64,000 nucleotides of DNA from Candidatus Latescibacterota bacterium (GCA_965248265.1 CBDFJF010000001.1:1920001-1984000), one strand, 5' to 3'. Positions 10,838 through 61,854 are shown, counted from the stretch's first letter. Program-made: numbers and translations. Notes: a model not told the origin generated them from the sequence alone.

Positions 10838-12982
10838 CTATCGGTTTTCCGAGGTATCGCCCGTTATAGTGCATCCGGTTTTGAGCACCTGCTGCACGAG
10901 TAGCGTTGTACGCGTAACCGCGATGCTGTCTTGCAGCAAAGCATCCGGCTCTCCATTGCCGAGCAATGCGTTGATGAAGTACTCCACTTCCCCACGATGT
11001 CCCTTGTCCTGGGAAATCTTCTTTGTCTTTTGCCGGCCTTCCGAAACGAAGGTCGCACGGCAAAAATCGTCGATGACGACGACCTTCCCGTTTGCGAACA
11101 TCTCGATTCGCTCCTTCGGGTACGCGGGATCTCCCAAACCCGCATATGTGACTGAGCCAACCGAGCCATCCGCGAATTGAATGATGATGACGACGCTGTC
11201 AGCGGACGAGCCTGCGCCGTACGCGGCCACATCCCTCGGCGTCGAACCTGAAAGAAAAGTCAGCAGATCGACGAAGTGACAGACCTCGCCGATAATCCTT
11301 CCTCCTCCTTCGATAGAGTCGAGCGCCCAGTGGTCGCCGGGAAGAGGTCCGGCGTTGATTCTGCAGTTGATGACTTTGGGGCCATCGCCAACGAAGTCAC
11401 GGGCCTGCGTAGACAGCGGAGCAAAGCGACGGTTGTGTCCGACCATTAGCAACGCGGGTGACTCCTGCGCCGCGCCTACGACCGCATCAAGCTCAACTTG
11501 GTCGAGCGCCATTGGCTTCTCGACGAAGGTCTGTTTGCTCGCCTTGAGAGCATCAATCGCAATGCGGGCGTGGAGATCGTGTCGAGTAGCGATTACGACA
11601 GCATCGATGTCTGAATCGGAGAGAATGTCTCTGTAATCCGTTGTGCAGTAGCTGAAACCCTCCCGCGTCGCGACATCCTTGCCGGATGAGCCTGAAGCGG
11701 TGGCGACACCAACCAGGGCGATTCGTGGCTGGGCCTTGAGAATGGGAAGCAGAGTCCCACGGGCGAAGTTTCCTGCTCCGATTACGCCCACACCAATCAC
11801 GCCCTCGCGTTGCTTGACGCTCTGCAGTCGCGCCCGTCTGTCGTAGGATACCTCAGCGGCCCCCTCTGGATACTCCAGCAACACTCCGATGGGGCGGTCA
11901 GGACGGTCTTGATCAAGCATCAGCTCGTAAGCGTCGACAGTCCGTTCGATGCCAAAGCGATGAGTCACCAACCCACTCAAACTGAGCTGTCCTCTGGCAG
12001 CTGTGTCCAGAAAGGCCTCCATGTTGCGGTTCTCAGTCCATCGAACATATCCTACCGGATAGTCGACACCCTGCTCCTCATACGCCCGGTCGTAACGACC
12101 TGGTCCGTAGGAGCGAGAAAGGCGAAGATCGAGTTCCTTTTCATAGAAAACGTCACGAGGTATGTTCAACCCCACATCACCGATGACGACGACGGTACCG
12201 CGATCCCGGCACAGCTGCGCCGCCAACTCGACCGCCTTGTTGCCGCCACCCCCTGCCGCGATGATGACTTTATCTGCACCCCGATCTCTCGTCATGCTGG
12301 CGATGACGACCTGCTCTCCTCCAGACACAGCGGCATTCCCGCCAAGACTGCGAGCCATGTCGACGGCTCTGGCGTCCACGTCGATTCCAAGGACCTGACA
12401 TCCGGCGCAGCGTAGTAATTGAGCAACAAGCTGTCCGACCAGGCCGAGCCCGACAACGACAACCACATCTCCGAGGGAAACATCCGCCTGTCGTATGGAT
12501 TGAAGGGCAATGGCCCCTACCGTAGTGAAGGCAGCGTCATCGAAGTTGACCTCGTCAGGCACGCGCACGCACAGATTTGTCGGCACGCTGACGTACTCCG
12601 CATGATTCGCGTACCCGCCACCGGCGCACGCAACCCGCATCCCGGGGCGAAATTCTGCGACGCCCTCTCCTGCCTCCACTACAACCCCCGCACAACTGTA
12701 GCCCAGTGGATGAGATCGTTCCAAGACTCCCATGGCCTTGGAATAAGCGGCCGCCATCCCCTCGCGTCGGGAAACATCTAATACCTTCTTCACTTGATCA
12801 GGGCGTGCAAGTGCTTTTCCTACCAGGCTCTTTGCACCAAGGCTTACGCTTTGGCGTTCGGTCCCAGAGCTGATCAAAGAGCGTGCGTTGCGTACGAGAA
12901 CTCTGCCCGGACCCGGTAGTGGAATCGGAACATCCTCTACCGTGAGCTGACCAGATCGCCTGTTCTGCAGAACCTGTTTCAA
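10838..12982 (-). CDS. Bi-domain oxidoreductase (Zn-ADH/MDR plus Gfo/Idh/MocA)
   Basis: SLISSGTE, LGYSCAG, GLGLVG, SRSYGPGRYD, GAGNFA, ATRHDLH, FVEKP, VGHNRRF, GEVCHF, DKGH. Confidence 0.92.
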   Translation of the reverse strand: MKQVLQNRRSGQLTVEDVPIPLPGPGRVLVRNARSLISSGTERQSVSLGAKSLVGKALARPDQVKKVLDVSRREGMAAAYSKAMGVLERSHPLGYSCAGVVVEAGEGVAEFRPGMRVACAGGGYANHAEYVSVPTNLCVRVPDEVNFDDAAFTTVGAIALQSIRQADVSLGDVVVVVGLGLVGQLVAQLLRCAGCQVLGIDVDARAVDMARSLGGNAAVSGGEQVVIASMTRDRGADKVIIAAGGGGNKAVELAAQLCRDRGTVVVIGDVGLNIPRDVFYEKELDLRLSRSYGPGRYDRAYEEQGVDYPVGYVRWTENRNMEAFLDTAARGQLSLSGLVTHRFGIERTVDAYELMLDQDRPDRPIGVLLEYPEGAAEVSYDRRARLQSVKQREGVIGVGVIGAGNFARGTLLPILKAQPRIALVGVATASGSSGKDVATREGFSYCTTDYRDILSDSDIDAVVIATRHDLHARIAIDALKASKQTFVEKPMALDQVELDAVVGAAQESPALLMVGHNRRFAPLSTQARDFVGDGPKVINCRINAGPLPGDHWALDSIEGGGRIIGEVCHFVDLLTFLSGSTPRDVAAYGAGSSADSVVIIIQFADGSVGSVTYAGLGDPAYPKERIEMFANGKVVVIDDFCRATFVSEGRQKTKKISQDKGHRGEVEYFINALLGNGEPDALLQDSIAVTRTTLLVQQVLKTGCTITGDTSENR

Positions 12983-13992
12983 TCGAACTCCAACCTCGAT
13001 GTGCGATGTCCCTGAGTCAGCATTTCAGAGGCCGTGATGTATGTTTTCGCCACCAGTCGAAAATCTGGATGTTCGTACATCGATGCGTACTCAGCGTTGC
13101 CCAAGCGACGTTTGAAACTGCGATACATTCCGCGATGGCCCTTATCCCGAAGCATGGATCCGTGCCGGCGTTGCCTTCCCGAGCCTGTTATTACCCTCAA
13201 TCTGCAAAGATCTTCGATAGTGAGCGTAAGGCCCCCTGTCGAATCTCGATGTGCTCTTGCACACTTCTGGTCTCAGAAACTTGGCGTACCTGCGATTGTA
13301 ACCGATCTCCAGGCTGCAGCCGGCTTCGCACAGCGAGTCTACGATCGCGTAATCTGCCCTGCTTACCGCCGCAGGCTTCTCTACAAAGATCGTTCCCGAG
13401 GAATTCCACTCAAACAGATCTCTGGCCTGCCGGGCATGGTCGCTGTGATACAAACAGCAAGGCGACTGGTCTCTTGGCCGCAGCCCAGCTACTCTTCATC
13501 TGCGTATGGGGCATCGGTGCGCGAACTCGCCCTGTACAATCCCCAGAGCAAGATCATTGTGGTCGACGCAGCAATACCGCTCACTCCGTGAAAGTGTGGG
13601 AGAACCTGGCTCTGGCATAGTCGCCGCAGCCGATCTGGAAGAGCGCCCGCTCGGCGTCGGGTGCGGCAGTGACCACGGCGTCTCCCGGCTCGTACACCGC
13701 TTGCGAAAATGGATGCACGCAGTCTTGTACCGCAAGCGCCTGGTAGAACGTAGTAGGTTTCTCCGCCATTGAACGAGACGGCATCTCCCGCCTCCGTTCT
13801 GGCTGCTACAAGGGACTTCTCGATACGTTCGCTACGCAGACGCGAGCGCGCCTTGGAGAGGACCGCGGCCGCCCCTCGTACCGACCGATGGAAGAAGAGT
13901 GCCTTTCTAACACTACGGTCGACGGTGCGACTGGGAGAGAGCTTGAAGAGCTCAACACTGGACAGCTCGTCTCTCCGTCTCTTCTCAAGCAT
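12979..13992 (-). pseudogene. Multiply frameshifted Gfo/Idh/MocA-like oxidoreductase
   Basis: Pieces in different frames: LFQIGCGDYAR (Rossmann), YHSDHA...IFVEKP...IGYNRRY, RDKGH. ATG 13992 overlaps the GT4 end and the stop overlaps the next start. Confidence 0.7.
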
Positions 13993-22582: not shown

Positions 22583-23884
22583 TCATTGGCGCTGGCCTTG
22601 AACCCTTGCTCGCACCAGGTGCCAAAACCCCAATCCCCTGGCAATCCGCCTTGCGTTCCACAGCACGGCGACCACTACCCACGACGATTCATCACATATC
22701 CTGCATAATAACTGACATGCCTTGATCTCAAATGAACCCTTACCCACCGATTTCATCGCCCCGCGTTTTCCAAAACAGCACATGAGAATGAATTCAACGA
22801 GCCTCTCATAAGAGTATCTTCCCGACGCAACAATATCCTGGTAAGCCTTTCCAGTAATCCTGTCCCTGTCCTCGTCCTTCACGATCCTGTCCATCACCTG
22901 CGCGATATTGCTGAAGTCTCGTTTCAACTCTATGTAATGTTCATCTGCGACAAGAATCCCGTTGTACTCTCCTTCGATTAATACCTGACACGTTCTCGTG
23001 GCACAGGCCTCCAGATGCCTCGGAGTGATCGCAGTGTAGTGGATGGACCCATCCAGACCAGGAAATATTGCCGCCTCGATTTCATCGAAACTAGCGTGTC
23101 GATTACCTGCTGTGAAGTCCGTTGTCCTCTTGCGCAATGTGCCATCCCTATCCATGACACTCGCCCCCCCCTCAACGCCAATCGTATATTTACATTCGCA
23201 CAAGAACTTGTACCACTCATCGCCCAAAAAAACATCGTCCGGCGAATTCGAGATATCTGAAACCAACCGATACTCGCTTGCGTACTTATTGAATAGGTCA
23301 GTCAGTTGAACCTTTAACATGGCGTGTTTACCCATACACGCAACGACTGGTCTTGCTCTGTACCCAATATGGATACGTCGCTCATCAATGGTTCGTCGAA
23401 TGTTCTCGATTGCCGTTATATCCTCGGACGTTAGATATCCTGTCAGAATCCTGAAAAATGAGACCCGCTCACGATCGACGTTGTTGTACAGCACACGCCA
23501 CTGATGCTCCGCCGCCGGGGTAAACACATAGTTCACGCCAAATTCATTGACAAACTCGCAGAGCGCGTCTGTCTCGCGGTGCTCATCCTGTGGCATAATA
23601 ACCTTGACGGCCGCGGATTCCTTCAAGTGTTGGACTCTCTTGAGCAGCCTCTTGTGTTTGTTACGGTGATCTCGGAGTGAAAAAAACGTGTGGTTGAACA
23701 CGATGAGATCAAATCGAATCTTTCTGAAATGCCAGGGAATGTGTCTGGCAGCCAGGTTGACATGGAAGCAGTAGTGACTTGAGCTATTGTTGAGGAAATA
23801 GAGATAGTTTTTCACGCTCTTCCGTAGGGGAAACTCACCCCTGTAATAGGACAAGATCAAAATTCTATACATGCGACCGCTCAT
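22583..23884 (-). CDS. Conserved hypothetical protein, probable glycosyltransferase; paralog of 15222-16502
   Basis: FDLIVF, PQDE, LTGYL, IGYRA, CKYTIGVEGG, TPRHLEACATRTCQVLIEGEY. True start is 23884 or 23872; lower GC than its paralog. Confidence 0.6.
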   Translation of the reverse strand: MSGRMYRILILSYYRGEFPLRKSVKNYLYFLNNSSSHYCFHVNLAARHIPWHFRKIRFDLIVFNHTFFSLRDHRNKHKRLLKRVQHLKESAAVKVIMPQDEHRETDALCEFVNEFGVNYVFTPAAEHQWRVLYNNVDRERVSFFRILTGYLTSEDITAIENIRRTIDERRIHIGYRARPVVACMGKHAMLKVQLTDLFNKYASEYRLVSDISNSPDDVFLGDEWYKFLCECKYTIGVEGGASVMDRDGTLRKRTTDFTAGNRHASFDEIEAAIFPGLDGSIHYTAITPRHLEACATRTCQVLIEGEYNGILVADEHYIELKRDFSNIAQVMDRIVKDEDRDRITGKAYQDIVASGRYSYERLVEFILMCCFGKRGAMKSVGKGSFEIKACQLLCRICDESSWVVVAVLWNARRIARGLGFWHLVRARVQGQRQ

Positions 23885-23922
23885 CCACGGTCCGACTCCA
23901 GCTCCACCGGAAAGCCCCCCTG
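23874..23922. repeat. 49-bp imperfect direct repeat, copy 1
   Basis: 44/49 identical to 24941-24989 by manual alignment. Confidence 0.9.
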
Positions 23923-24090
23923 CTCCAACGACCGCTGTACCGCCTGCAACACGCGGCACTCGCAGCCAATCCTGGCCGTCGCTACTGGGTTTGGCTTGAG
24001 CGCGAACACAGTCGACGAGTGCTGGCACTCGAGCTTGAGCGGCTCGTCCATGTGGATGTGCGGTATCACCACGTCACCAAACCGTCCATC
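23881..24090 (-). pseudogene. 3'-terminal relic of a Gfo/Idh/MocA oxidoreductase
   Basis: Joining frames gives RFGDVVIPHIHMDEPLKLECQH/LVDCVRAQAKPSSDG..LRV/RVLQAVQRSLEQGGFPVEL*, a typical C-terminus for the family. Confidence 0.72.
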
Positions 24091-24204: not shown

Positions 24205-24606
24205 TCAGAACCCCATTCGATCGGCTGCCGCCTGCAGGGCCGAATCGGCAGTGATAAGCCTTGCCCGGTGCTTCTCGGCCAACGCCAGGAAAAGCGCATC
24301 GTAGACGGTCAAGCTAGCGCGAGGCGCTATCTTGCAGGCTGAGGTGAGGATGTCCGAGTGAGGCGTGATTCTCAGGGGCAACGACAGGATATGAGTGATA
24401 AGCAGCTCGACATCCTCGTCGGTCAACAGGTGCGCGAGTCTCTTTTTGTGCAAGACTTGACCGGCTTCCGCGAGTATGAGATCGGGGGCGAGCAGGGCGT
24501 CCTCGCCCCGTTCCGCAGATAGTATGGCTCGCTCCATTGTCTCCGGTAGGGGACCGTCCGGTACGAACAACCGGATGAGAGCCGAGGTATCTACCACCCA
24601 GATCAT
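24205..24606 (-). CDS. vapC: PIN-domain toxin
   Basis: VVDTSAL, APDLILAEAG, LTVYDALFLALA, LITAD. Confidence 0.92.
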   Translation of the reverse strand: MIWVVDTSALIRLFVPDGPLPETMERAILSAERGEDALLAPDLILAEAGQVLHKKRLAHLLTDEDVELLITHILSLPLRITPHSDILTSACKIAPRASLTVYDALFLALAEKHRARLITADSALQAAADRMGF

Positions 24607-24833
24607 CGTTGACGATCTTCACGGATCTCTGCAGGGATATCGCCCCACGCTCGGTCCTTGAGTTTTTCTCTCCATTCACGGGCCACTGACACGTGGCCTC
24701 CGCCGGCCAGGCTGACTTCTCGTTGAAGAATCAATTTGATCTGCTCCTGCATGCTTCGACGATTTGATTTCGCCATTTCCCGAAGCCCTTGGTAGGTTGC
24801 CGTGTCTACACCCCGGATCGTCAGCGACTTCAT
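24603..24833 (-). CDS. FitA-like ribbon-helix-helix antitoxin
   Basis: MKSLTIRGVD...LREMAKSNRRSMQEQIKLIL; GGAG RBS; ATGA overlap with the toxin gene. Confidence 0.85.
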   Translation of the reverse strand: MKSLTIRGVDTATYQGLREMAKSNRRSMQEQIKLILQREVSLAGGGHVSVAREWREKLKDRAWGDIPAEIREDRQR

Positions 24834-24848
24834 TTGATGCTCCAATAC

Positions 24849-24940: not shown

Positions 24941-24989
24941 CGATCGCTCATCTACGGTCCGACTCCAGCTCCACGGGAATGCCCTCCTG
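24941..24989. repeat. 49-bp imperfect direct repeat, copy 2
   Basis: Matches 23874-23922; the minus strand reads QEGIPVELESDRR*. Confidence 0.9.
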
Positions 24990-25050
24990 ACTAATATCCT
25001 ATACATGCTGCCTCATGGGTTCCGCCAAGGTGCTCTTGGGGTCGGCGCGT

Positions 25051-25179
25051 TCTCAGTCTCAGCCAGGCGCTTGGTCGCTCCCATGACGCTCGTAGGCCGC
25101 ACAGCCTTGTCAGTCGAGGTCAGTACGAAGCGCTCAACACCATGACGCAGAGCGCTCCGTGCCATGGAACATTACCTAG
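25051..25179 (-). repeat. Orphan near-identical copy of an internal capD segment
   Basis: 25051-25171 equals 31441-31561 with 3 mismatches, same orientation, offset 6390 bp; covers the [21 protein letters not shown] motif. Confidence 0.95.
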
Positions 25180-25466: not shown

Positions 25467-26432
25467 TCATTTCTCCAGCTTTATAGACCGCGCCTGGTCC
25501 AGGGAGACGGGTTTGGCCAACCACCCCAAAGCCCCTATTACTCCACCGGCGACATAGAAGGTCACGAATATCAGGAAGGCGAATCCAAGCGCCCGCTCGT
25601 ACTCCACTCCACAGCTCCCCAAGTAGGCGACAATAGCTGCTTCGCGCGTGCCAATACCTGATATCGACAAAGGCAGCAGCGTGACAAGACTGCCCAATGC
25701 CACGGCAAAGCTGATGGGAAAAAACCCGACTTCAATACCTATGGATAAAGCGACAAGATGGCACTGCCAGAAAAAGACGGTATAGGCCATTATGGTCAGA
25801 ACGATACAGGCGACCAAGGAGGTTACCGGCAATACCTTCAAACCGCCCCGCAAATCGCGCACCAAACTCTCGGGGCCGAAGAGGCGTGCGCCCCCCCTGC
25901 CAAGGCGGCTCCCCAGGCGGCTGATCCAGGTGAAGGCCTCGTCTGACAGAAGCGCAACGAGCAAACCGGTCAACCCCATGACGGCCGCGACGATTCCCAA
26001 CCACGCGTTGTGATCCCCGGCGGCGGTCAGCATCAACGCGAGCCCACCTACTCCCAAGAGCATATACAGATCGAAGATGCGGTCCGCCAGAACAGAGGAA
26101 AACGCCCTGCCGATCGAAACGCGGCAGTCCTGTTTAACGTGAAAGGCCTTGACCAACTCCCCAAGGCGGCCAGGTGTCAGCAGCCCTAGGAAAATACTGC
26201 CGGAATACGCCAGTCCGGCCTTCCAAACACCATAACATATCCCCTGGGCCAAGAGCAGTGTTTTCCAGCGCACAACTTTCAAAGACAGTTGGGGAATATT
26301 TAAAAAAATAGCCACGACCAGGTACCACGACGCATCTGCTATGGTGCTTACCAGATGCCCAAGGTCGACGCGGCTGAGCAGAAAACCGAGTAGTAGAACG
26401 CCGACGAGCCGTAACAGGGAAGAGCCTCTCAT
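25467..26432 (-). CDS. Lysylphosphatidylglycerol-synthase TM (flippase-like, UPF0104) protein
   Basis: RWKTLL, LTPGRLGELVK, SVLADRIFD, LLPLSISGIGTRE. Confidence 0.88.
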   Translation of the reverse strand: MRGSSLLRLVGVLLLGFLLSRVDLGHLVSTIADASWYLVVAIFLNIPQLSLKVVRWKTLLLAQGICYGVWKAGLAYSGSIFLGLLTPGRLGELVKAFHVKQDCRVSIGRAFSSVLADRIFDLYMLLGVGGLALMLTAAGDHNAWLGIVAAVMGLTGLLVALLSDEAFTWISRLGSRLGRGGARLFGPESLVRDLRGGLKVLPVTSLVACIVLTIMAYTVFFWQCHLVALSIGIEVGFFPISFAVALGSLVTLLPLSISGIGTREAAIVAYLGSCGVEYERALGFAFLIFVTFYVAGGVIGALGWLAKPVSLDQARSIKLEK

Positions 26433-30877: not shown

Positions 30878-32938
30878 TCATCCGTCTGCCTCCCAACCAC
30901 GGTAATCTGGAACGTAGCGCTTGAGCAGCTCTCGGATGAGAACCCGATCGCCCGCTTTGGCTGCAGCCCTCAGCTCCTCTACTGCCTGGTCCCAACCGGT
31001 GAGACAGCTCGTTCGTCCTGCGCAAACGGCGATCTTGCCGTGGTGGCGAAGGGCCTTCACTTGCTCATCTGTCACCAGCTCTTCTGAGAGCTTCTCACCG
31101 GGCCGAATCCCGGTGAACTCGATCTTGATGTCTCTGTATGGCTCCAGGCCTGCCAGCCGAATCATGTTCTCCGCCAGATCCAGAATGCGCACAGGATCGC
31201 CCATGTCGAGGATACACAACTCGCCGTTCTGCCCGACGGCGGCGCTGTGGAGAACCAGGCGTACCGCTTCGGGAATGGTCATCAGATAGCGGTACATTTC
31301 TGGATGGGTTACGGTTACTGGCCCTCCTTGGCGTATCTGGCGCTCGAATATCGGCACCACACTGCCTCGGCTACCCAGCACATTCCCGAAACGCACCGTC
31401 ACAAACCGGGTATTCTCACTCTTTGCCGCGAGCCGCTGTATCTCAGTCTCAGCCAGGCGCTTGGTCGCTCCCATGACGCTCGTAGGCCGAACAGCCTTGT
31501 CAGTCGAGATCAGTACGAAGCGCTCAACACCGTGACGCAGAGCGCTCCGTGCCATGGAACACGTACCTAGAAAGATTGCCGATACGGCCTCGTCCGGATC
31601 CTGTTCCATGAAAGGCACATGTTTGTGCGCCGCGGCGTGAAACACAATGTGGGGCCGCGACTCAGCCATCACCCTGTCTACTTTCCCCTCGTTTCGTATG
31701 TCACCGATGATCGCCTTCAGCTGTAGTTGGGGATGCAAGCTGGACAAATTCTGAATGGTGCTATGAATGCTGGCCTCTCCCTTCCCCAACATCACAAGGC
31801 ATTGCGGTGAGAATGCCGCAATCTGCCGGCAGAGCTCCGAACCGATCGAGCCCCCTGCGCCGCTCACGAGGACCACCTTGTCCCGCAAATACCCCTCTAT
31901 CTCTACGGGATTGAGCTGCACTTCCTGTCTCCCAAGAAGGTCCGTACCGCTCACTGAAGGCAGATCCGACACATCCACGCGGCCACTGAGATAAGCCGAC
32001 AGTTTCGGGAGCTTACGAACAGCCACTGCTTTGGTCCGACAGAGCGTGACGACCTCACTGAGCCGGCCCTCGTCCAGTTCATCCACGGCAATCAACACTT
32101 CTTGGATGGCGTGTTCCGAGAGTATGTCAGCCAGCTTCTCTCGGCCGCCGAATACTCTGAGGCCATGAATTCTGCTGTAGCGCTTTGCGGGGTCGTCGTC
32201 GAGGAATCCCACTACCTGATAGACTTCCGGGCTCCTCATGAGCGCGCGGGCGACGCTCTCCCCAAAATCACCTGCACCGTAGATCGCTACCCTGCGTCCT
32301 CCTGCCTGACGCTGGCCGCGAAGGTCATGAGACAGACGTGGGGCGAGCCTCACGAAAGAGATCGCCAGGAAGGCCAGAATCCCCTCCAGCAATACCACTG
32401 ATCTCGGAATGCCGAGGTCGTACGACTCCGACTCGAAATCGAGGGCAGCTCCAATCGGGGTTTCGCCCAGGGTTCGAGGGGTCTGCTCCGACCGGGTAAA
32501 CAGCAGTACGCTGACAAGGACAGCTGCGCCCGCAACTGATGTTATGACCGACAGTGCAAGTCGCTTCACTCTCGAGAGCCTCAGTTTGTCGAGGGAGATC
32601 CGGTGCAGGACCGCAGCAAGAAAGAACCCGGAAGCCGCAAGGAGGGCCCAGTCATGATTCTTCAGATAGTCGACGCTGATCAGGGCGACAGAGCCAAAGG
32701 CAACACCGCGAATGACAGAGAAAAGATCGTTAATCCCGCAATACCGCCAGAAGGATTGGTACCCACCAAAAAAGTAGAGAGAGGCAATCCTCAACAGGAC
32801 GATGACCGGTAACAACTTTATCAGCTGAGTCTGGTAATAGGGCCACACATCGAAGTCGAAGCGGATCAAGTAGGCCAGCCACGCTGCCCCCGCTACGGTA
32901 GCGCCGTCGACGATGACGATTGCTGCCCGTCTCAACAC
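30878..32938 (-). CDS. capD: CapD/PglF/WbpM-type UDP-GlcNAc 4,6-dehydratase
   Basis: N-terminal TMs, GAGGSIGSEL, HAAAHKHVP, STDKAV, MGATKR, VRFGNVLGSRGSV, RPGEKL. Confidence 0.92.
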   Translation of the reverse strand: MLRRAAIVIVDGATVAGAAWLAYLIRFDFDVWPYYQTQLIKLLPVIVLLRIASLYFFGGYQSFWRYCGINDLFSVIRGVAFGSVALISVDYLKNHDWALLAASGFFLAAVLHRISLDKLRLSRVKRLALSVITSVAGAAVLVSVLLFTRSEQTPRTLGETPIGAALDFESESYDLGIPRSVVLLEGILAFLAISFVRLAPRLSHDLRGQRQAGGRRVAIYGAGDFGESVARALMRSPEVYQVVGFLDDDPAKRYSRIHGLRVFGGREKLADILSEHAIQEVLIAVDELDEGRLSEVVTLCRTKAVAVRKLPKLSAYLSGRVDVSDLPSVSGTDLLGRQEVQLNPVEIEGYLRDKVVLVSGAGGSIGSELCRQIAAFSPQCLVMLGKGEASIHSTIQNLSSLHPQLQLKAIIGDIRNEGKVDRVMAESRPHIVFHAAAHKHVPFMEQDPDEAVSAIFLGTCSMARSALRHGVERFVLISTDKAVRPTSVMGATKRLAETEIQRLAAKSENTRFVTVRFGNVLGSRGSVVPIFERQIRQGGPVTVTHPEMYRYLMTIPEAVRLVLHSAAVGQNGELCILDMGDPVRILDLAENMIRLAGLEPYRDIKIEFTGIRPGEKLSEELVTDEQVKALRHHGKIAVCAGRTSCLTGWDQAVEELRAAAKAGDRVLIRELLKRYVPDYRGWEADG

Positions 32939-33876: not shown

Positions 33877-34080
33877 ACGGCTCGATGCTCGATCCGCCTA
33901 GCCGGGTCATCAGTCGGTTTGATCGTCGAAGACGTAGTGGCAATAGATACATCTGAGAAAAGAGCCTTTGGCCTTCGGACAAAACGCTTCCAGAGCCGAC
34001 AGCACAACTTTTCGGGTCGAGATTCTGGCAGCATCTCTAACACGCCGTGAGACCGGCACGGCCCCCGCCAATGGGTGACA
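33873..34080 (-). pseudogene. Collapsed relic, N-terminal part resembling a polysaccharide deacetylase
   Basis: My translation gives RVRDAARISTRKVVLSAL...SFLRCIYCHYVFDDQ* (FLRCIYCHYVFDDQ at 33919-33960), then a short tail ending on the next start (TTGA). Confidence 0.45.
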
Positions 34081-34132
34081 TAAGGTTCGTCAGACACTCA
34101 ATGCTCGGTGCAATTTGTCGTAGACGAAAGGC

Positions 34133-40758: not shown

Positions 40759-40868
40759 GTGTGCGGAACACCAGCGGATGTTTTCAAGGAGTCGCTGATG
40801 TCAAAGGTGCTGCGCATGACCTCGACCAGAGAAGGGCCCGTCATGAGATCTTGCACAACCTGCCTCAT
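40755..40868 (-). pseudogene. 37-aa in-frame head-tail relic of a bi-domain oxidoreductase gene
   Basis: MRQVVQDLMTGPSLVEVMRSTFDISDSLKTSAGVPHT*. The head resembles MKQVLQNRRSG and the tail resembles IAVTRTTLLVQQVLKTG of the 10838-12982 product. ATGA overlaps at both ends. Confidence 0.7.
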
Positions 40869-41635
40869 GCCGACTTGGTTCCGCGAACGACGATAAACCA
40901 GCCCAGGTCGTGAGGGACGATTTTATACATCCATTTAGGGAGGAATCTCTCTCTGCTCATGCGCATGTCATAGGGGGTCAGTATCGTATTCACCTGCAGA
41001 TCAGGTAGATCGGGAAACATCCCCCGAGCCTCCGACCTCGTGTAGGCCTTGGTGCCGGGGCTCTCCATATGCTCTGACAGCACCGTGCGAAGGGATCTCC
41101 ACGGTTGCCCCCTCAGGAGGGCATAGATTATCCAGGTCTGCAGCGCCACGATGGATCTGCGATGGTACAACATCACGCACACCTCGCCACCTGGCCGACA
41201 GACCCTCACTATTTCTCGTGCAGCCGCTACGGTGTCGGTGGTGTGATGGATGACACCCCAGCTGTAGACCAAGTCGAAAGCTCCGTCATCGAAGGGGAGT
41301 CGCTCCGCGTCGGCTTGTAACAACCGTGAAGAGAGTCCGCGAAGACGCAGTCGCTCGGCAGTAAGCTGGAGAGAGCGTCGTGTTAGATCGGTCCCGACAG
41401 CCGCAGCGCCTGCCTGCAGAAACTCGGTGTGGTCCGTACCGACACCGGTGCCCACTTCGAGAACTCGGCGGCCGGCCCACGAGGGGAATCTCGCGTAGTC
41501 GTGTATAAAAGGTTCGAGCTGGTACCGCCTTCTGGCTATGTGCTCGAAATACTCCCGTTCCCCCTCCTGCTCGGGCACGTCCCGCGTCCCGCACGGTTCG
41601 CTCTCCCAAAAGGCGGCGACATCACTCTTCATCAT
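40865..41635 (-). CDS. Class I SAM methyltransferase
   Basis: FWESEPCGTR, VLEVGTGVGTD, LPFDDGAFDLVYSWGVIHH, ESPGTKAYT. True start is 41635 or 41632, not 42106. Confidence 0.9.
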   Translation of the reverse strand: MMKSDVAAFWESEPCGTRDVPEQEGEREYFEHIARRRYQLEPFIHDYARFPSWAGRRVLEVGTGVGTDHTEFLQAGAAAVGTDLTRRSLQLTAERLRLRGLSSRLLQADAERLPFDDGAFDLVYSWGVIHHTTDTVAAAREIVRVCRPGGEVCVMLYHRRSIVALQTWIIYALLRGQPWRSLRTVLSEHMESPGTKAYTRSEARGMFPDLPDLQVNTILTPYDMRMSRERFLPKWMYKIVPHDLGWFIVVRGTKSA

Positions 41636-42110
41636 TCTTTTGGACACTGGACCTTTGATTTCCTCCCATAGTAGGCGATCACCCCCAAGACGGCGGCTCC
41701 CCCATAGAACACCAACAGCATGAGGGTCGAAAAGAGCACGGCAGTCTCGGCCTTCAGATCGTATACCTCGAAGGCGCGCACCAGGAACGCGTCGCGAGTG
41801 CCCAACCCCAGCAATCGAAACGGGCAAGAGCACCACCATATTGGCTGCCGCCGCGGTTGTCGTCAGTTGCGCCAGATCTATGTGTCCGCCCACCCCCAGG
41901 GAACACGCCAGGAAATAGATCTGCAGACCGAAAATGACGAACGCTCCGATGGTGAGCGCCACTGCGGATCCTGAAATTGAAGCACGCATGACGGCAGCCG
42001 AGCGATGGCTTGGGCCACTTCCGAAGAGCGTCGGCGTAGTCTGTATCCGAGATCTGCCTTTTTCTGCCTGTTGCGGTAGTAATGTACGTAGTCCACCGAC
42101 CCTCACTCAT
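41632..42110 (-). pseudogene. Deleted and frameshifted lysylphosphatidylglycerol-synthase TM gene
   Basis: LLPVSIAG/LGTRDAFLV is split by an extra G near 41808. Only the C-terminal part remains, behind a short N-terminus from ATG 42110. Confidence 0.75.
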
Positions 42111-47994: not shown

Positions 47995-49345
47995 CGACCC
48001 ATCGAAATTTTCCGGAAGGATCTGGTGAGAGATGGTCGACGACGGACAACTCGACGTGCATATCGCCGAGATGCTCCGTGAACTGCTTCTCCAGTTTAGC
48101 GCCTTCGCTGGACGTCAGCGGGCGTCTCGTTTCCAGCTTCACCGTTATCTGCCCTGGACCCGTCTCGACAATTCGGTACTTTCTGACAGCTGGTTGGTAG
48201 CGCATGATGTAGTCGAAGAGTTCTGGGTGCACATACTCGCCGTTGGGCCGCCTGATCAGGTCGTTGTCCCGCCCGACCAGGCTTTTCATCACGGAAAGCT
48301 CGCGACCGCATGAGCATCTCTCTGTCGACAATGAGCCGACGTCACCAATCCGATAGCGTAGTAGAGGCAATCCAAAACTCCGGAGATGCGTTACGACGAG
48401 ATACCCGGCTCCATCTGCGGCCGACTCACCGCCTTCGATCTCTGTCAGTATCGTCTCGTCCGCAAGATGCAGCGATCCGTTCTGACACTCGTTTGCCATC
48501 ACCCCTGCCTCGACAGAGCCGTACTCGCTGACCAGGCGGCACCCGAAGACCTCCTCGATGAGTTGCCGCTGATTCGGGTATAGTGTCTCGGACGTGTACA
48601 TTGCGACAACGGGTGCTGCGCCATCTATCGACAGCGCATGGTCGCGGATGAAGTCAGCAAAGACATACAGCGCCGTACCGTACCCGAAGAGGATCCTGGG
48701 CCGCTCACGGATCAGGATTCTGTAGCTCTCCATCAGGTAGCGCTCGGAAAGTTCAAAAGCGGATCGAATATGAACGGCGAGAGCCCTGTCTTTGAGGAGA
48801 TGCACTTGCTGCAGAAGCCGACCAGAAACTGACCGGTCGAAGGGCGAGCGATCACCCCAGAGCCTGAGCTCTCGGTCGCCGATATCGATCCCCCACCATC
48901 GCCGCCCGCGGATCATGTTGGCCAGATGATAAGACAGGGCAACCGCGCTTAACCGAAAAGAGACAGGCTCCCCAGTGGACCCGCTGGTCCTGACGGTGCA
49001 CATGCGACCATCCGGCTCTGTAGAATACAGATCGGCCATTCGGGCTCGCAGATCTTCCTTTGTGAGTATCGGAAAGGACGAAAAATCCTCGATGCAGCAG
49101 AAGTCTCCCGGTTCCGCTCCGAGTATCTCGAATTGCTCCCTGTAATAGGGGGAAGAATGATAGCAGTGATCGAGGAGAGCGCGCAGGCTGCTCCATTGCA
49201 GCTCACGGAGTTGCTCCTTGGAGTACCATTGCGACCTGTCCAGCGCGCGCAGAACGGCGGGCGTTTTCCTGGCCAGGAGTCGTTCCTTGATAGGAAAGAG
49301 ACACTTTCTAGCTATCCGGGCGCGCACGTCATCCTCCCATCGCAT
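47972..49345 (-). CDS. Phenylacetate-CoA ligase family (CapK-like) adenylating enzyme
   Basis: PILTK, TSGSTGEP, EYGSVE, PLLRYRIGD, GRDND, SGKFR. Confidence 0.9.
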   Translation of the reverse strand: MRWEDDVRARIARKCLFPIKERLLARKTPAVLRALDRSQWYSKEQLRELQWSSLRALLDHCYHSSPYYREQFEILGAEPGDFCCIEDFSSFPILTKEDLRARMADLYSTEPDGRMCTVRTSGSTGEPVSFRLSAVALSYHLANMIRGRRWWGIDIGDRELRLWGDRSPFDRSVSGRLLQQVHLLKDRALAVHIRSAFELSERYLMESYRILIRERPRILFGYGTALYVFADFIRDHALSIDGAAPVVAMYTSETLYPNQRQLIEEVFGCRLVSEYGSVEAGVMANECQNGSLHLADETILTEIEGGESAADGAGYLVVTHLRSFGLPLLRYRIGDVGSLSTERCSCGRELSVMKSLVGRDNDLIRRPNGEYVHPELFDYIMRYQPAVRKYRIVETGPGQITVKLETRRPLTSSEGAKLEKQFTEHLGDMHVELSVVDHLSPDPSGKFRWVVGRGHVN

Positions 49346-49510
49346 GTTGCCGCTGCAGTTGTTTGTAGAGAATACCAGGCCACGGTTTCGATGGCGAAAC
49401 GCTTTAGTATCGTTTCGCGGGCACATGTCCCCAACGTCGCACGCCGAGCGGGATCAAGCAGCAAACCGACCAACGTATCGGCGAACTTTTCTGGATTTCC
49501 TTGTAACCCC
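49312..49510 (-). pseudogene. 3' relic of a GT4 glycosyltransferase
   Basis: NPEKFADTLVGLLLDPARRATLGTCARETILKRFAIETVA matches the GT4 C-terminal helix pattern. Confidence 0.65.
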
Positions 49511-49541
49511 GTTTGGCGATCTCGGGCGGGCGGACACTTCT

Positions 49542-52834: not shown

Positions 52835-53721
52835 CGGCTTCTTTTGTCAACGAGATCCGCGATAAGACCGATCGCCAGCAGCTGCAGCCCACTGGAGGCG
52901 AGAACGATCGTCGTCACGTCCATGATCTGTGGAGTAAAGAAGTAACTGTAAGAGAGGACACTGAAGGACGCCCCAAAGAGGAATAAAGAAAAAGGCAGGA
53001 AGACTTTGAGCGGATTGAAATACATCACGGTTCGGACGATCAGTTGAGCGAATTTCAGCGTATCTCTGAGCGGCCGGATCTTCGACCGACCTGTCCTTTT
53101 GTGGTAGTCGATCGGTATGAACCTGACCTCGAAGTCGTTTGTGAGCATAGCGAGTGTTATCGTCGTAGTGAACGAGAACCCGTTCGGCAGAATACTCAGG
53201 AATCGCTCCACTACACTCTTGCGCATGACTCTCAATCCCGAGTTCAGATCGGGAATCTTCACTCCCGCCAAATAGCTCGCCAATCGTCCAATCAGCCACT
53301 TCGCCGGGCGCCGGATCAATGAGATGTGAACATGTCTGCCAGTTCGCGCGCCGACCGTCATATCACATCCATCTATGAGAGCGATCAGCTCGGGCAGTCG
53401 ATCCGATGGATAGGTGCCGTCCGCATCCGTGATGGCGACCAGCTCGGCCTTTGCCTGCCGTATGCCGTGCTTGAGCGATGCCCCATACCCGCGGTTTTCC
53501 TCGTGACGCAACACGACGGCACGCTTCTCCAATGCCTGTTCGCTGGTCCCGTCGTCTGATCCGTCGTCGACGACGATCACTTCGAATGGAATACCTGCCT
53601 TGTCCATAACTTCGTAGATCTCATCGATAGCGACCCCAATACCGGCGACCTCGTTGTAGGCAGGAACGATGATGCTGACTTCCGGCTTGGTATTCACCTC
53701 AGGCAACTCCAAACAGGGCAT
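52831..53721 (-). CDS. GT2 glycosyltransferase (DPM-synthase-like, C-terminal TMs)
   Basis: IIVPAYNE, VDDGSDD, NRGYG, DADG, DLNSG. Confidence 0.92.
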   Translation of the reverse strand: MPCLELPEVNTKPEVSIIVPAYNEVAGIGVAIDEIYEVMDKAGIPFEVIVVDDGSDDGTSEQALEKRAVVLRHEENRGYGASLKHGIRQAKAELVAITDADGTYPSDRLPELIALIDGCDMTVGARTGRHVHISLIRRPAKWLIGRLASYLAGVKIPDLNSGLRVMRKSVVERFLSILPNGFSFTTTITLAMLTNDFEVRFIPIDYHKRTGRSKIRPLRDTLKFAQLIVRTVMYFNPLKVFLPFSLFLFGASFSVLSYSYFFTPQIMDVTTIVLASSGLQLLAIGLIADLVDKRSR

Positions 53722-53785
53722 AAGGCTACATTTTCTTGCGCAATTTTCACATGGTCTCCAAGATTGTCAGAGAACTGGAGATGGG

Positions 53786-54393
53786 ATGGCTGAGATAACC
53801 TCCGACGCGTCATGCGTCGTATGTAGTTCGCAACCATGCGAAATCTACCGGATCTACAGAACCACTCTCGAGAGAATCGGCTCTATGATCCCAAAGGGCC
53901 ACCTGCTGGACATCGGATGTTCCTATCGCGCGTTTGTAGAGCCCGCTCGGAATAGCGGCTGGGAGGCCACTGGTGTTGACATCTCCCGGAAAGCGACCTC
54001 GTACGCACGGCAGCACAGAATTTAATTGCTTGAGATTCGTCGAATACTGATCGCTGGTGAAATTGTAGCGATATTCACAACAAACCAGAAAAGCCTCATG
54101 AATAGGCTTGCCCATATGTCAAACCGACTCACGCTCGGCAGATTCAAATCGCCGTTAGCCCTTTGTACGACAAGCATCATCGATTCTACCCGAGCGAAGG
54201 GACTCTGATAGAACTGCTGCGGAATGCGTGCATTACTGGAGATATTGTAGTGGATTGGATGGATGCCGATATCGGATGGCAAGCCGTTCCTATCCCGAAA
54301 ATCCTTGGACCGGGCAGCAAGTGCGTCGATGTCGCTGCTCGGTTGATCGGCTCTCGATACCGGATGTTGCTGTGTGCCATCAATGCCAGTTGA
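53786..54393 (+). pseudogene. Decayed zinc-site class I methyltransferase on the opposite strand
   Basis: GGAG plus ATG 53786; CVVC, LLDIGCS, GVDIS, stop, LLEIRRIL, YDKHH. Internal segments are missing. Confidence 0.72.
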
Positions 54394-58139: not shown

Positions 58140-58375
58140 TCGGTTTGAGCCGGCGTGCTTCATCGTGGTGGAGGGATCCCTGCCGGCGGTCGACCGGGTT
58201 AAATCCATCCACTTGATGTCGGGATAGTACCACGTCTTTCTTCATGAAGTTCTCCGACTCCTCTAAACCAATGAAGACCGGCACAAACTGTGCACCGTGC
58301 AGCACTGCCTGCAACCACTAGATCATCACCCCGACCTCGCCCAATCTCCAACCCCTCCACGGATTCTTCAGACCC
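58140..58375 (-). pseudogene. Relic of a second copy of the adjacent GT-C gene
   Basis: HGAQFVPVFIGLEESENFM/KTWYYPDIKWM versus HGAQFIPVALGIESSEDFTRRKTWYHDDVVWL in 58376-60343. Confidence 0.72.
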
Positions 58376-60343
58376 TCAACGCTCGCCTTCCTGACAGTTG
58401 CCAAGGTGGAGTCTGTAGACCACAGACTCCAGTTGCCGCGTGCCTATTCCCAAGGTTCGCGACTCGGCCGTAGTTCGCCGACTCCTGTAGACCTCCTCTC
58501 CGCATTCCGTGGTGAGATCGCGTATCACGGTCATGGCGTTGCGTATGACCGGGTCCGGTATTGCCTCGAGGCGCGACGGCGGGTAGCGCCGCTCATCGAT
58601 ATACAGGTGGGTGATGCCCAGAGCAGTGAGCTCCGCCGACAGCCCTCGGACGTTGCGGGTACGGCTCCAATCGAGGAACCCCTGGAAATACACGGAGGCG
58701 AAGAAGTAATCCACGTTAAGAGGGTAATTCAGCAGCCTGTTGAAGTGCAGCAGTCGTTCGCCAGGCTGAAGTGTGTGGTTGAGCCAGACGACATCGTCGT
58801 GATACCAGGTCTTCCTCCTCGTGAAATCCTCACTCGACTCGATTCCGAGTGCGACCGGGATGAACTGCGCGCCATGCACGACTGTGACAGACAGCTGGAA
58901 CACGACGCCCACTGCGAGTGGCCAGACGATGAAAGGCCTGAGCCTCTCCCATTTCCAGGCACCTTGCACACCACCCACGCCGAGGATCAGGAGCCATGGC
59001 ACTACCGGGAGTAAGTGACGGGATCGATGAAAGGCAAGGGCGAGCCAGAGAGACGCAAACAAGCCTGCATAGACGATGACGAAAATCCCGATTTCGCGAA
59101 ACCGCTGGTTATGCCACATCGCCAGACCGACGGTGGGAATCATCAGGAATGGAACCAAGCCGTACCCATTCCGGGCAGCGCCAAGTACAGACCCGTTCAT
59201 AGTCACGATCCAAGGCAGCGTCAAGAGCATCCACGGGGTGACTGGCAGTGCCCTCTTGTGGCGCTCTGTGAAGGCCGAGAACGCTGCGTCGAGTGAGGCG
59301 CTCCAATCGGTACCTCCAAAGAGCGAGTAGAACGCGGGATAAAGGGGATTGCCTGTGTTGGCATAGTTCCGAAGCCACCAGGGACAGGCCACGCATACTG
59401 CTACCATCAGAATGAGGCCAGTGGCGAGAACGATCCTTCTGACGGGAATCCGCCTCCACACAACGATCGACAACATGGTCAAAACTGGGACGATCGCCAG
59501 TGTGAAGAGGCCATAGTATTTAATTCCAGCGGCGAAGCCCAGGAAGAGCCCTGCAAGCACAGCTGTGAGGTAGCGATCTGCCCTAGCCCATTCAAGCATC
59601 ATCCATACGCCCATCAGACTGTATAGCATGAGCGGTATATCGACATGTCCCGCCACGCCAATATCGGCAACCATCGGCAAAGTTATGAAGATCGACCCAA
59701 CCCAAAGCCCGGCATGCCGGGATCCAAGCAGCGCTCCTGCGAGGGCGACGATGGCCAAGCAGGCGACGGCCAATTGGATCCATGAAATAACTCCGGCCAA
59801 CCTCACGTCGGCCAAGGCCATGCCAAGAGCGTAGAGCATATGCGAGTACAGGGGGCCGTTCGTCGCAACGTCTGGCACGTACACGAGTCCAGCCTCGGAC
59901 GCGACCAGTTTGGGATAGGCGTAGTGGTATGCCAGGGTATCAGCGGCCGTGGGTGGGGATACCGCTTCGAAAGTGTACAGGAGCAGGGCAACTGCAATCA
60001 CGGCTACGGGCAGGCGTTCCCACGGCGAGTGGGTGTCCAACCACTGCCTGCTCATGGTGCAGAACGTTCGGACCCAACAACTCAGGTCGCGCCACACAAA
60101 GGGCAGCAAGACAGCGGTACCAATACCGGTCACGCTGGCTTCCAGCACGTCCAGACTGGCCATCGCCGTGCCCGTAAGCGACAGGACACCCAGCCCGAGA
60201 CTGGCCGAGCCCGCCAGGTACGGCCCCTTGGCAAGCTCCCAATCATCCGTCAGGCAGCGCCAGATCGCGCTTCCCAAAGCGATTGCTGTGCTGATGACGG
60301 CGCCTGCCAGCGCTGCTGTACTGACGGCTGCGAGTACGTTCAT
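58376..60343 (-). CDS. GT-C (ArnT/PMT-like) membrane glycosyltransferase
   Basis: PPTAADTLAYH, GFAAGIKY, PWWLRNYANTGNPLYP, SRHLLP. Confidence 0.75.
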   Translation of the reverse strand: MNVLAAVSTAALAGAVISTAIALGSAIWRCLTDDWELAKGPYLAGSASLGLGVLSLTGTAMASLDVLEASVTGIGTAVLLPFVWRDLSCWVRTFCTMSRQWLDTHSPWERLPVAVIAVALLLYTFEAVSPPTAADTLAYHYAYPKLVASEAGLVYVPDVATNGPLYSHMLYALGMALADVRLAGVISWIQLAVACLAIVALAGALLGSRHAGLWVGSIFITLPMVADIGVAGHVDIPLMLYSLMGVWMMLEWARADRYLTAVLAGLFLGFAAGIKYYGLFTLAIVPVLTMLSIVVWRRIPVRRIVLATGLILMVAVCVACPWWLRNYANTGNPLYPAFYSLFGGTDWSASLDAAFSAFTERHKRALPVTPWMLLTLPWIVTMNGSVLGAARNGYGLVPFLMIPTVGLAMWHNQRFREIGIFVIVYAGLFASLWLALAFHRSRHLLPVVPWLLILGVGGVQGAWKWERLRPFIVWPLAVGVVFQLSVTVVHGAQFIPVALGIESSEDFTRRKTWYHDDVVWLNHTLQPGERLLHFNRLLNYPLNVDYFFASVYFQGFLDWSRTRNVRGLSAELTALGITHLYIDERRYPPSRLEAIPDPVIRNAMTVIRDLTTECGEEVYRSRRTTAESRTLGIGTRQLESVVYRLHLGNCQEGER

Positions 60344-60350
60344 GACCTGG

Positions 60351-60661
60351 TCAAGCGCTGCCTGAGCTCAATTGAGCGTACCTGCTTGTGAGACTGCGGC
60401 CTTCAGCTGGGTTGCATATCGTCTGGGAAGCCGAGAGCGACAACGCTCGGAGCCCGTCGAAGACTAACTGGGCGACAGAATACTTGATAATACCAGGCTT
60501 TCCTTTCCGTGAAGCTATCATGGTCTTCGTGGTAGCGGCCAGGCCAAATGCGAGCGACGCCTCGACTGGCAATGAGGGTCGTCCACGTTCGCCGCGTAGA
60601 TACCGCCACAACTCCGCACCGTCCCCATGCCATTGGAAATTGGAAGGACAAAGCTGATCAC
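60351..60661 (-). pseudogene. Collapsed GT2 glycosyltransferase relic
   Basis: GTG 60661 (GTGA overlap) starts MISFVLPISNGMGTVRSC, a GT2-like N-terminus. A different frame supplies a tail ending at 60351, just before the next ATG. Confidence 0.55.
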
Positions 60662-61854
60662 GACTCGCAGTCAGTCCCATCCTCGCTTGCGGCCAGCACA
60701 TCCCTGTACAATTGGACGTATCTCTGTGAAACTCGGCCTATGCAGAAATCTCGTAATACTCGCTCACGCGCAGCCTTAGTTACGCTCGTATCCTTACCCA
60801 CTAGAACCCTTACGACGGTCTCGGCAACACATGAAGGTGTCGCTTCACGCAACTCGTAACCTGTGCTCTCGTCGCGAACCAATCCGTCTGTGACTCCTCT
60901 GATCGGCCTTACTACGCATGGCAGTTCGCATGCCATGGCCTCTATCAATGCATTGGGAAGCCCTTCCCTCTCTGAGAGAAAGACATACACGTCGGCAATC
61001 TGGAGATACTCAACTACGTTCTGCACGTGCCCAGTAAGGACCACTGAAGCATTGAGCTTCCTATCAAGCAAGAATTCCCGAATTCCCTCTGCGCATTGCG
61101 GATCCTCAGTGCAGCTGCCTACAAGGACTAGGAAGGCGCCAGGCACCTCCTTCTCAATCTGCGGCCATGCCTCGACTATCAAGCCGACACCTTTCGCGGG
61201 TCGAATTATTCCCGTATAGAGTACGATATGTGCTGTTGGTGGCAGACCCAGTTTCAATCGTTTCCCTGTGCGGTCCACTCCTGACTCCAATTTCCGAAAC
61301 GCTGTCGTATCAACACCATTTGGTATATAGTGAAATCTCCTTGTTGGAAGACCGGACTGGCGGTAGGATTCCGTCAGCAAGGGAGATACACTTATTACCG
61401 CGTTTGCCAGTCTAAACAGGCTGACCTTCAGCCAGCCGAGTCGCTCACGCATCAACGCAATGGGATCGTCTTGGCCATGACCAGTCATTTTTAGTACTAC
61501 ACGTTTCTTTAATAGCCGTGCGAGTAAGACAGAAGGAAGCGCCCAGATGTTCACACCATGTACGTGTAGAATATCATAGCTATCACGGGCCCTTAGGAGC
61601 GTGGCCAACACCCTTAACCCCCAGCCGTATGGCCACAACCTCCCCTTTGCTTTAGTCGGGACACGTGTGACTGTGATTCCTTTAACGTGCTCGACCCGTT
61701 TAGCCTTCTCTCCAATACCAGCACCGACGATTACGACGCAGGTGCCGGACGCAGAAAGACTCTTGGACAAACAGAGCGCCTGTGTGCCGGCCCCTGATGG
61801 TGTGGGCGGCAGCCGGACAGCCAACATCATTATTCGTGGATCGGGTTGCGTCAC
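60658..61854 (-). CDS. GT4 glycosyltransferase
   Basis: YIPNGVD, AKG, SEREGLPNALIEAMA. Confidence 0.92.
   Translation of the reverse strand: MTQPDPRIMMLAVRLPPTPSGAGTQALCLSKSLSASGTCVVIVGAGIGEKAKRVEHVKGITVTRVPTKAKGRLWPYGWGLRVLATLLRARDSYDILHVHGVNIWALPSVLLARLLKKRVVLKMTGHGQDDPIALMRERLGWLKVSLFRLANAVISVSPLLTESYRQSGLPTRRFHYIPNGVDTTAFRKLESGVDRTGKRLKLGLPPTAHIVLYTGIIRPAKGVGLIVEAWPQIEKEVPGAFLVLVGSCTEDPQCAEGIREFLLDRKLNASVVLTGHVQNVVEYLQIADVYVFLSEREGLPNALIEAMACELPCVVRPIRGVTDGLVRDESTGYELREATPSCVAETVVRVLVGKDTSVTKAARERVLRDFCIGRVSQRYVQLYRDVLAASEDGTDCES

Follow-up and report, generated by a model that had tools for sequence, protein, structure and literature searches.

Gene remnants between the intact genes of a Candidatus Latescibacterota polysaccharide-synthesis locus: one in-frame collapsed gene among one-ended, frameshifted and relocated fragments

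When genes die inside a long run of closely spaced genes, are their ends kept because the neighbours depend on them for translation, or do the ends survive for a more ordinary reason? This question is raised by a polysaccharide-synthesis locus at positions 9156-63997 of the window, a 64,000-nucleotide (nt) stretch of DNA from a Candidatus Latescibacterota bacterium (G000:C1:1920001-1984000) that is part of a 7.3-Mb, two-contig, metagenome-derived assembly. Open reading frame (ORF) calls and Pfam matches resolve the locus as a near-continuous minus-strand run of long ORFs, which bears out the polysaccharide-gene setting proposed by an earlier, sequence-only reading. That reading described eight intervals between the intact genes as relics, seven lacking most of their middle and one frameshifted, and proposed that genes are removed by internal deletion while the ends that serve translational coupling to their neighbours are kept.

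Six of the eight intervals (12979-13992, 23881-24090, 36221-36403, 40755-40868, 41632-42110 and 49312-49510) matched protein families in tblastx and other homology searches of the spacers and are supported as gene remnants, whereas 33873-34080 and 60351-60661 gave no informative match. The coordinate pairs could not be taken as reading frames, as four of the eight are not multiples of three and the true frames of 41632-42110 and 49312-49510 differ. The supported remnants, with two of the intact genes that they adjoin, are as follows.

10838..12982, minus strand: intact bi-domain oxidoreductase (biOR; ADH_zinc_N and GFO_IDH_MocA, Pfam), 714 aa
12983..13992, minus strand: degraded, frameshifted biOR copy directly upstream of the intact biOR (tblastn, profile)
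23881..24090, minus strand: C-terminal ~65-70 codons of a Gfo/Idh/MocA oxidoreductase (blastn, BLASTP)
36221..36403, minus strand: N-terminal 60 codons of an SDR/NAD-dependent epimerase, with the Rossmann GxxGxxG part (Pfam, BLASTP)
38740..40758, minus strand: heparinase II/III-like gene (Pfam), whose start overlaps the 37-codon ORF
40755..40868, minus strand: 37-codon ORF from the two ends of a biOR (end profiles, junctions, synteny)
41632..42110, minus strand: LPG_synthase_TM-like remnant, with homology at 41662-41968 (about residues 208-307 of 321)
49312..49515, minus strand: C-terminal ~65 codons of a GT4 glycosyltransferase (GT4 hidden Markov models, NCBIfam)

Judged on its sequence, the 37-codon ORF at 40755-40868 is a true in-frame internal collapse with both coupling junctions intact. 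It is the only interval that lacks most of its middle and keeps both ends as had been described; four of the others are one-ended (three C-terminal, one N-terminal). The remnants are probably the product of a composite, recombining locus in which redundant paralogues decayed, their ends surviving through the purging of deletions that ran into needed neighbours.

The start of the 37-codon ORF lies in an ATGA at 40865-40868, where it overlaps the TGA of the upstream methyltransferase gene, and its stop lies in a second ATGA at 40755-40758, where it overlaps the ATG of the heparinase-like gene. Among the relics, this double overlap is confined to 40755-40868. The encoded peptide comprises ~16 N-terminal and ~20 C-terminal biOR residues, in order and in one frame. 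This composition was examined with profiles made from nine biOR proteins of relatives, using 5000 shuffles and 6519 small ORFs of the genome as controls. The N-terminal profile scored 8.7 bits (equalled by 2/5000 shuffles and 1/6519 small ORFs) and the C-terminal profile 9.9 bits (0/5000 and 0/6519), while the 13.6 bits of the joined profile were reached by no shuffle and no small ORF. With the full-length biOR profile, HMMER aligned the peptide to positions 2-708, with a single giant deletion in between. Since all catalytic domains are gone, the ORF is not a functional biOR member.

The position of the ORF can be compared with gene order in relatives. Eight relatives' loci were fetched, four of which hold a heparinase-like gene together with a 37499-type GT4 gene. 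A biOR gene lies upstream of this pair in all four, directly upstream of the heparinase-like gene in L033 only and at a gap of 3.9-4.7 kb in L035, L036 and L037. In three of the four, a gene for an asparagine-synthase-like protein (AsnB) is found upstream of biOR, directly adjacent in L033 alone. The 37-codon ORF, directly upstream of the heparinase-like gene, occupies the biOR position of L033, a distant relative. As its identity fits that gene order, relics may record ancestral order, and the proposal that they form such a record is supported to this extent. The companion proposal, that glycan structure is also readable from the relics, is not justified by any test made.

The 1-kb relic at 12983-13992 had been described as a frameshifted gene with both junctions kept. 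It is indeed spread over three frames, colinear with the intact biOR of the window (tblastn). Residues 468-563 of biOR were found at 13447-13181 (E 1.4e-6) and residues 632-697 at 13233-13012 (E 5e-6). Weaker pieces correspond to residues 63-109 of the intact biOR (13914-13774, E 0.4) and to residues 381-457 of the L035 and L036 biORs (13712-13455, E 0.003 and 0.089), and the nine-relative profile matches the relic at positions 471-532 (independent E value 3e-5). The TTG start of the intact biOR at 12982 and the relic's stop at 12979-12981 share nucleotides (TTGA), and an ATG at 13992 sits 5 nt before the TGA of the upstream gene. The first 40 codons from this ATG do not match the biOR N-terminal profile, which leaves the 3' junction as the one verified to be native. 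The relatives' C-terminal profile misses the last ORF of the relic, though it matches the window's own biOR. The intact biOR has homologues at 38-48% identity in 8 relatives' loci, and tandem biOR pairs occur in one relative, L039.

The remaining supported relics retain one recognisable end. The epimerase stub at 36221-36403 matches NAD_binding_10 (32.3 bits) and Epimerase (31.3 bits), both past their cut-offs, at profile positions 1-56, and over residues 1-30 of both sequences it is 57% identical to a 327-aa epimerase (BLASTP). Its native GTG start (36403) lies 16 nt inside the end of the upstream GT4 gene, and it ends at a premature stop 21 nt before the next ATG, the remainder of the gene being lost. 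The LPG_synthase_TM-like remnant aligns with residues 208-261 of the paralogue at 25467..26432 (BLASTP, E 7e-7); tblastn places residues 208-261 and 254-307 in two frames, with the frame change near 41815, and the Pfam match is to PF03706 (E 0.0017). Its first ~45 codons have no homology, and its native TGA at 41632 overlaps the ATG of the methyltransferase gene (ATGA). Because an upstream piece of this remnant is in frame with the methyltransferase, a misleading 413-aa ORF results (40865..42106, minus strand); the true methyltransferase start is probably the ATG near 41637. The GT4 stub at 49312-49515 scored 17.7 bits at positions 345-385 of 401 in a hidden Markov model of 23 GT4 proteins from the same genome and 21.0 bits with a C-terminal GT4 model, and these scores were equalled by 0/9982 control ORFs and 0/3000 shuffles. 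The stub also matched the extreme C-terminus of NCBIfam EpsE (positions 346-386 of 389, E 0.005). Its stop lies 13 and 31 nt past the two nearest in-frame candidate starts, GTG 49327 and ATG 49345, of the next gene, which encodes a PaaK/CapK-like ligase.

The oxidoreductase stub belongs to a 1.6-kb patchwork (25467-23872) that combines a PglF copy, permuted repeats, a vapBC pair and the oxidoreductase C-terminus. Its further pieces, and the source of the PglF copy, are listed here.

24205..24845, minus strand: intact vapBC-type pair, RHH antitoxin at 24603-24845 and PIN toxin at 24205-24606
24941..25008, minus strand: repeated pieces, in permuted order, of the oxidoreductase 3' end and the start of the next gene (blastn, local alignment)
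25051..25179, minus strand: relocated internal PglF-like fragment (blastn, Pfam)
30878..32938, minus strand: PglF-like dehydratase (Polysacc_synt_2, Pfam)

The stub itself (23881-24090) shares 77.6% DNA identity over 192 nt with G000:C1:2013018-2013208 (blastn) and 59% amino acid identity with residues 276-339 of a 341-aa paralogue carrying the GFO_IDH_MocA Pfam domains, 29 kb beyond the window (BLASTP, E 6e-22). Its tblastx pieces lie in different frames, which indicates an internal frame change, and its native stop is 8 nt ahead of an ATG at 23872. Upstream of it, the RHH antitoxin (FitA-like_RHH PF22513, E 1.4e-10) immediately precedes the PIN gene (PF01850, E 1.3e-14), and the two ORFs overlap by 4 nt. 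The pair is flanked by 49-nt direct repeats at 24941-24989 and 23874-23922, and no second DNA copy of it was found in the genome. These repeats are copies of the oxidoreductase 3' end that are 90% identical over 49 nt (blastn), and the adjoining 24993-25008 is identical at 14/16 positions to 23859-23874, the first 16 nt of the next gene, a score reached by 2/2000 shuffles. The PglF-like fragment is 96% identical over 130 nt to 31441-31570 within the PglF-like gene and matches PF02719 at profile positions 111-147 of 293 (E 4.7e-12). The arrangement at 23874-25179, around an inserted vapBC, is one of recombination and insertion and not of internal deletion, and the 96% and 90% identical copies are recent intralocus events.

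The earlier observation was largely borne out, and the locus is richer in remnants than had been listed, with four further fragments in addition to the intact vapBC pair. Two fragments outside the patchwork are given below with the two listed relics that lack informative homology.

33873..34097, minus strand: listed relic without detectable homology, in a 259-nt gap; its stop overlaps the next ATG (TGATG)
53702..54022, plus strand: N-terminal fragment of a class I SAM methyltransferase, in a 300-nt gap (Pfam, BLASTP)
58197..58335, minus strand: GT-C (PMT-like) fragment resembling residues 488-525 of the adjacent gene 58376..60343 (tblastx)
60351..60701, minus strand: listed relic without informative homology, in a 314-nt gap; GTGA at the upstream stop

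The methyltransferase fragment matches Methyltransf_23 at profile positions 12-58 (E 1e-4) and is 38% identical to residues 27-79 of a 255-aa methyltransferase from L011, a second polysaccharide locus (BLASTP, E 1.2e-9). As it lies on the strand opposite to the whole locus, it implies an inversion or a reversed inserted piece. The GT-C fragment was matched by phmmer (E 5e-4) and by BLASTP (45% identity over 38 residues, pairwise E 9e-9). For 33873-34097, nothing was found in Pfam or NCBIfam up to E 10, by tblastx in the genome or the relatives' loci, or at E<=1 in a large protein search with longer lengths. Its best phmmer match in its own genome was an unannotated 184-aa ORF (E 0.0075), and rubredoxin-like Atlas clusters at 0.76-0.78 fell under the threshold for a lead; an origin in the N-terminus of a deacetylase or a zinc ribbon is at most conjectural. 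The interval 60351-60701 has a GTGA junction at 60661 and an ORF stop 7 nt before the next ATG; it has no informative Pfam or NCBIfam family match and no usable Atlas match. A GT4 N-terminus was rejected here, as 6841/9982 control ORFs scored as high, and a phmmer search of 1.84 billion proteins returned 4 matches, to proteins of 1266-2387 aa in 3-9 stretches, which were read as repeat or composition effects. The gaps at 10605-10837 and 18521-18646 gave no tblastx match, and Rfam, applied to look for non-coding explanations of the gaps, identified only the tRNA. Across 33000-50000, the 2 sigma-70-like promoter sites and 8 terminator-like sites were not in excess over shuffles (means of 6.9 and 12.1).

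The intact genes of the locus include the following, assigned by Pfam among 38 large ORFs.

in the locus: an initiating sugar transferase
in the locus: five GT4 and two GT2 glycosyltransferases
in the locus: a Wzy-like polymerase
in the locus: two AsnB genes
in the locus: several SDR epimerases and one UDP-GlcNAc 2-epimerase
in the locus: six methyltransferases, five of class I and one of Methyltransf_24 type at 63245..63997
25467..26432, minus strand: intact LPG_synthase_TM gene

Each relic family has an intact paralogue either in the window or ~30 kb away in L011 (G000:C1:2003001-2021000). In L011, three relic families have full-length paralogues (Gfo/Idh/MocA, SDR and methyltransferase), and a radical-SAM/SPASM gene and a HepT toxin gene are also present. 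A canonical 4-nt overlap is possible at 9/38 junctions between consecutive locus genes, so tight junctions are the norm in the locus. Fourteen of the 38 junctions are wider than 100 nt, and eight of those fourteen contain homology-supported fragments. The G+C content ranges from 0.51 to 0.61 along the locus. It drops to 0.50 in the first 2000 nt of the window, where a 66-nt tandem duplication of 95% identity (1707-1838) lies in or near a transglutaminase-like ORF (1169..2359). Three other ORFs are of separate note. The 688-aa SGNH/AlgX-like ORF at 34133-36199 (minus strand) looks like a fusion, as its residues 34-426 and 478-663 correspond in relatives to two separate ORFs, of ~400 and ~240 aa. 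Those at 51401-52834 and 27541-29229 (minus strand) are paralogues (40% amino acid identity over ~460 residues) without a Pfam family, and NCBIfam gives only faint pectate-lyase or squalene-cyclase-like matches (E ~0.1).

The sequence-only reading had found no insertion sequence (IS) or recombinase in the locus, and this was confirmed by Pfam, with no transposase or integrase family detected in the 38 large ORFs or in 146 six-frame segments of the gaps. Remnants of this kind often, though not necessarily, accompany IS or other mobile elements; inside this locus there is only the vapBC pair. Some 5 kb past its downstream end, a phage-integrase fragment at 3213-3755 (plus strand; Pfam E 1.5e-5), restricted to the N-terminal part of the catalytic domain, adjoins a tRNA-Met gene at 4002-4078 (minus strand).

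How might a composite, recombining locus have come to hold such remnants? It would once have carried redundant paralogues, including two AsnB, at least three biOR and two LPG_synthase_TM genes, as well as many GT4, SDR and methyltransferase genes. Surplus copies were then probably lost through deletions and illegitimate recombination, one event being accompanied by the vapBC insertion, and gene stubs would have been left in the spacers against the intact genes, keeping their native starts or stops. Breakpoints that reached a needed neighbour, or an initiation region lying in the end of the upstream gene, would have been removed by selection. One deletion happened to fall in frame and gave rise to the 37-codon ORF, through whose two ATGA overlaps ribosomes could still travel from the methyltransferase to the heparinase-like gene. 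What the fragments are, how they join their neighbours and how the 37-codon ORF fits the L033 position can be read from the sequence; in what order the events took place, that selection kept the gene ends and that any stub is translated are inferences. A deletion confined to a dispensable gene leaves both of its ends behind, so that the retained ends need no special mechanism. The mechanism is most likely ordinary decay under selection on the neighbours.

Several results weigh against this account. No close relative of the locus was found with the heparinase-like protein as query, which gave only weak, short matches (~38-39% identity) at one locus in genome_contigs and two loci in metagenome_contigs, and the gene was present in none of 75 same-family genomes at E 1e-30. 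Without a close relative, neither the ancestral state nor deletion endpoints or microhomology could be mapped. A log-odds score for codon usage, for which 2490 long ORFs of the genome served as the training set, did not tell the verified relics from chance ORFs and was dropped. At about 32-59%, amino acid identities between relics and paralogues are too low for the relics to have been copied recently from the surviving genes. In addition, no homology was detected for two listed relics and four more wide gaps.

The strongest competing view is that the stubs are recombination scars, left where polysaccharide loci exchanged cassettes through crossovers inside genes, with no deletion in a once-complete locus. 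This view is a serious contender, even if we lean somewhat away from it. One-ended stubs are what it predicts, and the relocated and permuted fragments around vapBC at 23874-25179, the methyltransferase fragment on the opposite strand, the G+C steps along the locus and the absence of the locus from the 75 same-family genomes searched with the heparinase query all agree with it. However, the 37-codon ORF and the colinear 1-kb biOR pseudogene point to within-gene deletions and not to block boundaries, and no IS, integrase or repeat was found at boundaries inside the locus. Cassette exchange is also compatible with decay in a composite locus and does not exclude it.

A second view follows the sequence-only reading, in that internal deletions are preferred, both ends being kept for translational coupling and the stubs acting as ribosome relays. 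The 37-codon ORF fits it well, being open, bounded by ATGA at both ends and in the native frame at its C-terminal part, and the native 3' end is kept against the next gene's start in 5/6 verified relics. A precedent exists in the comEB-comEC pair, in which translation of an ORF is needed by its neighbour while its protein is reported to be dispensable (bioRxiv 10.1101/2020.12.30.424838). However, both ends stand in one open frame in only 1/6 verified relics. Frames are broken in the 1-kb biOR relic (three frames), the LPG_synthase_TM relic (two) and the Gfo/Idh/MocA relic (an internal change), and a ribosome entering these at a kept start could not reach the kept stop, so coupling through them is not preserved. 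A recognisable 5' part is absent from three relics, one in-frame deletion among several is the chance expectation (one in three), and an initiation region would need much less than the 60-330 nt that the retained pieces span. Internal deletion with retention of coupling ends is therefore borne out fully at 40755-40868 and partly in the 1-kb relic but is not a general rule; with four one-ended relics, three frameshifted ones and a single in-frame event attributable to chance, the interpretation is only partly supported, and we regard it as unlikely. From the sequence, the 37-codon ORF is nevertheless a testable candidate for a coupling relay to the heparinase-like gene. It may be proposed more broadly that coupling selection shapes gene death in long operons, such that 'non-polar' deletions leaving an open mini-ORF from upstream stop to downstream start would be favoured, the 37-codon ORF would be a maintained ribosome relay needed by the heparinase-like gene, and the 3' stubs would be kept for the initiation region of the next gene; this proposal we hold to be doubtful.

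It is more improbable still that the intervals are ordinary non-coding spacers whose ORFs arose by chance in a G+C-rich genome. The window contains 349 ORFs of at least 60 aa, no small ORF has a codon score above zero, and 33873-34097 and 60351-60701 lack informative homology. However, six listed and four further fragments have family-specific homology that was checked against controls, and for six of the eight listed relics this view is refuted.

Assembly or sequencing artefacts, such as collapsed repeats, chimeric bins or indel errors, are hardly credible as the cause. The assembly does derive from a metagenome (2 contigs), and indel errors might in theory account for the frame changes of the relics. 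Such errors do not, however, remove hundreds of codons or bring paralogue identities down to 32-59%, and the region 33000-50000 is reproduced without a mismatch or gap by an unbroken Logan contig from each of three of the four runs, the fourth run covering part of it. This answers the concern that the deletions were misassemblies for that region, with the reservation that all runs stem from a single sample, which may be the one assembled, and that contigs hide minority variants.

Decay in a composite, recombining locus has parallels in known systems. In the O-antigen clusters of Salmonella groups B1 and D1, wzy remnants are described as 'degraded by serial deletions' once their function had passed to another wzy (PMC3715488). 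Among E. coli O-antigen clusters, gene remnants are reported in 9/178 serogroups and non-coding regions in 14/178, in a review that takes them as signs of recent events (PMC7685785). The likeness lies in truncated pieces of pathway genes between intact polysaccharide genes; the O-antigen remnants arose by serial deletions once their function had been taken over, and have been used to infer cluster history. The density in the present locus is much higher, at least 10 fragments in ~50 kb, compared with remnants in 9 of the 178 E. coli serogroups. It also differs in that no IS or H-repeat elements lie inside the locus, that one open in-frame mini-ORF has canonical overlaps on both sides, and that the bacterium is uncultured, with no close relative found. 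Gene decay in polysaccharide loci is known, and this locus adds an unusually dense new case.

Close, canonical operon spacings are reported to arise by deletion bias and to be held by selection, and operons to be remodelled by deletion of intervening genes (Price, Arkin and Alm, PMC1480536). The start/stop overlaps of the present locus are comparable with those that are reported there to form and persist through deletion bias and selection. That study compared orthologous operons, and the sections of it considered here describe no two-ended collapsed ORFs, whereas intermediate stages of deletion are visible in the present locus. In Bacillus subtilis, comEB, upstream of comEC, is an ORF reportedly needed for its translation and not for its product (bioRxiv 10.1101/2020.12.30.424838). 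By analogy, ribosomes might be handed to the downstream gene by the 37-codon ORF, which ends where that gene starts. However, comEB is a full-length gene, while the 37-codon ORF is collapsed and its relay role only putative. A keyword search of the open-access literature returned no paper on a two-ended remnant ORF with canonical overlaps on both sides, which is not proof that none has been published.

The remnants have practical consequences for annotation. A 413-aa protein would be annotated at 40865..42106 even though a dead gene makes up the first ~155 codons of this ORF, small proteins could wrongly be read into the 37- and 60-codon ORFs, and glycan inference from gene content would overcount the enzymes. 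It is chiefly through gene remnants, as through fossils, that the rebuilding of polysaccharide loci can be followed, and many stages of decay occur together in this locus, from a 1-kb frameshifted pseudogene through one-ended stubs and relocated fragments to an in-frame mini-ORF. The locus thereby offers a test case for whether translational coupling limits the deletions that an operon tolerates.

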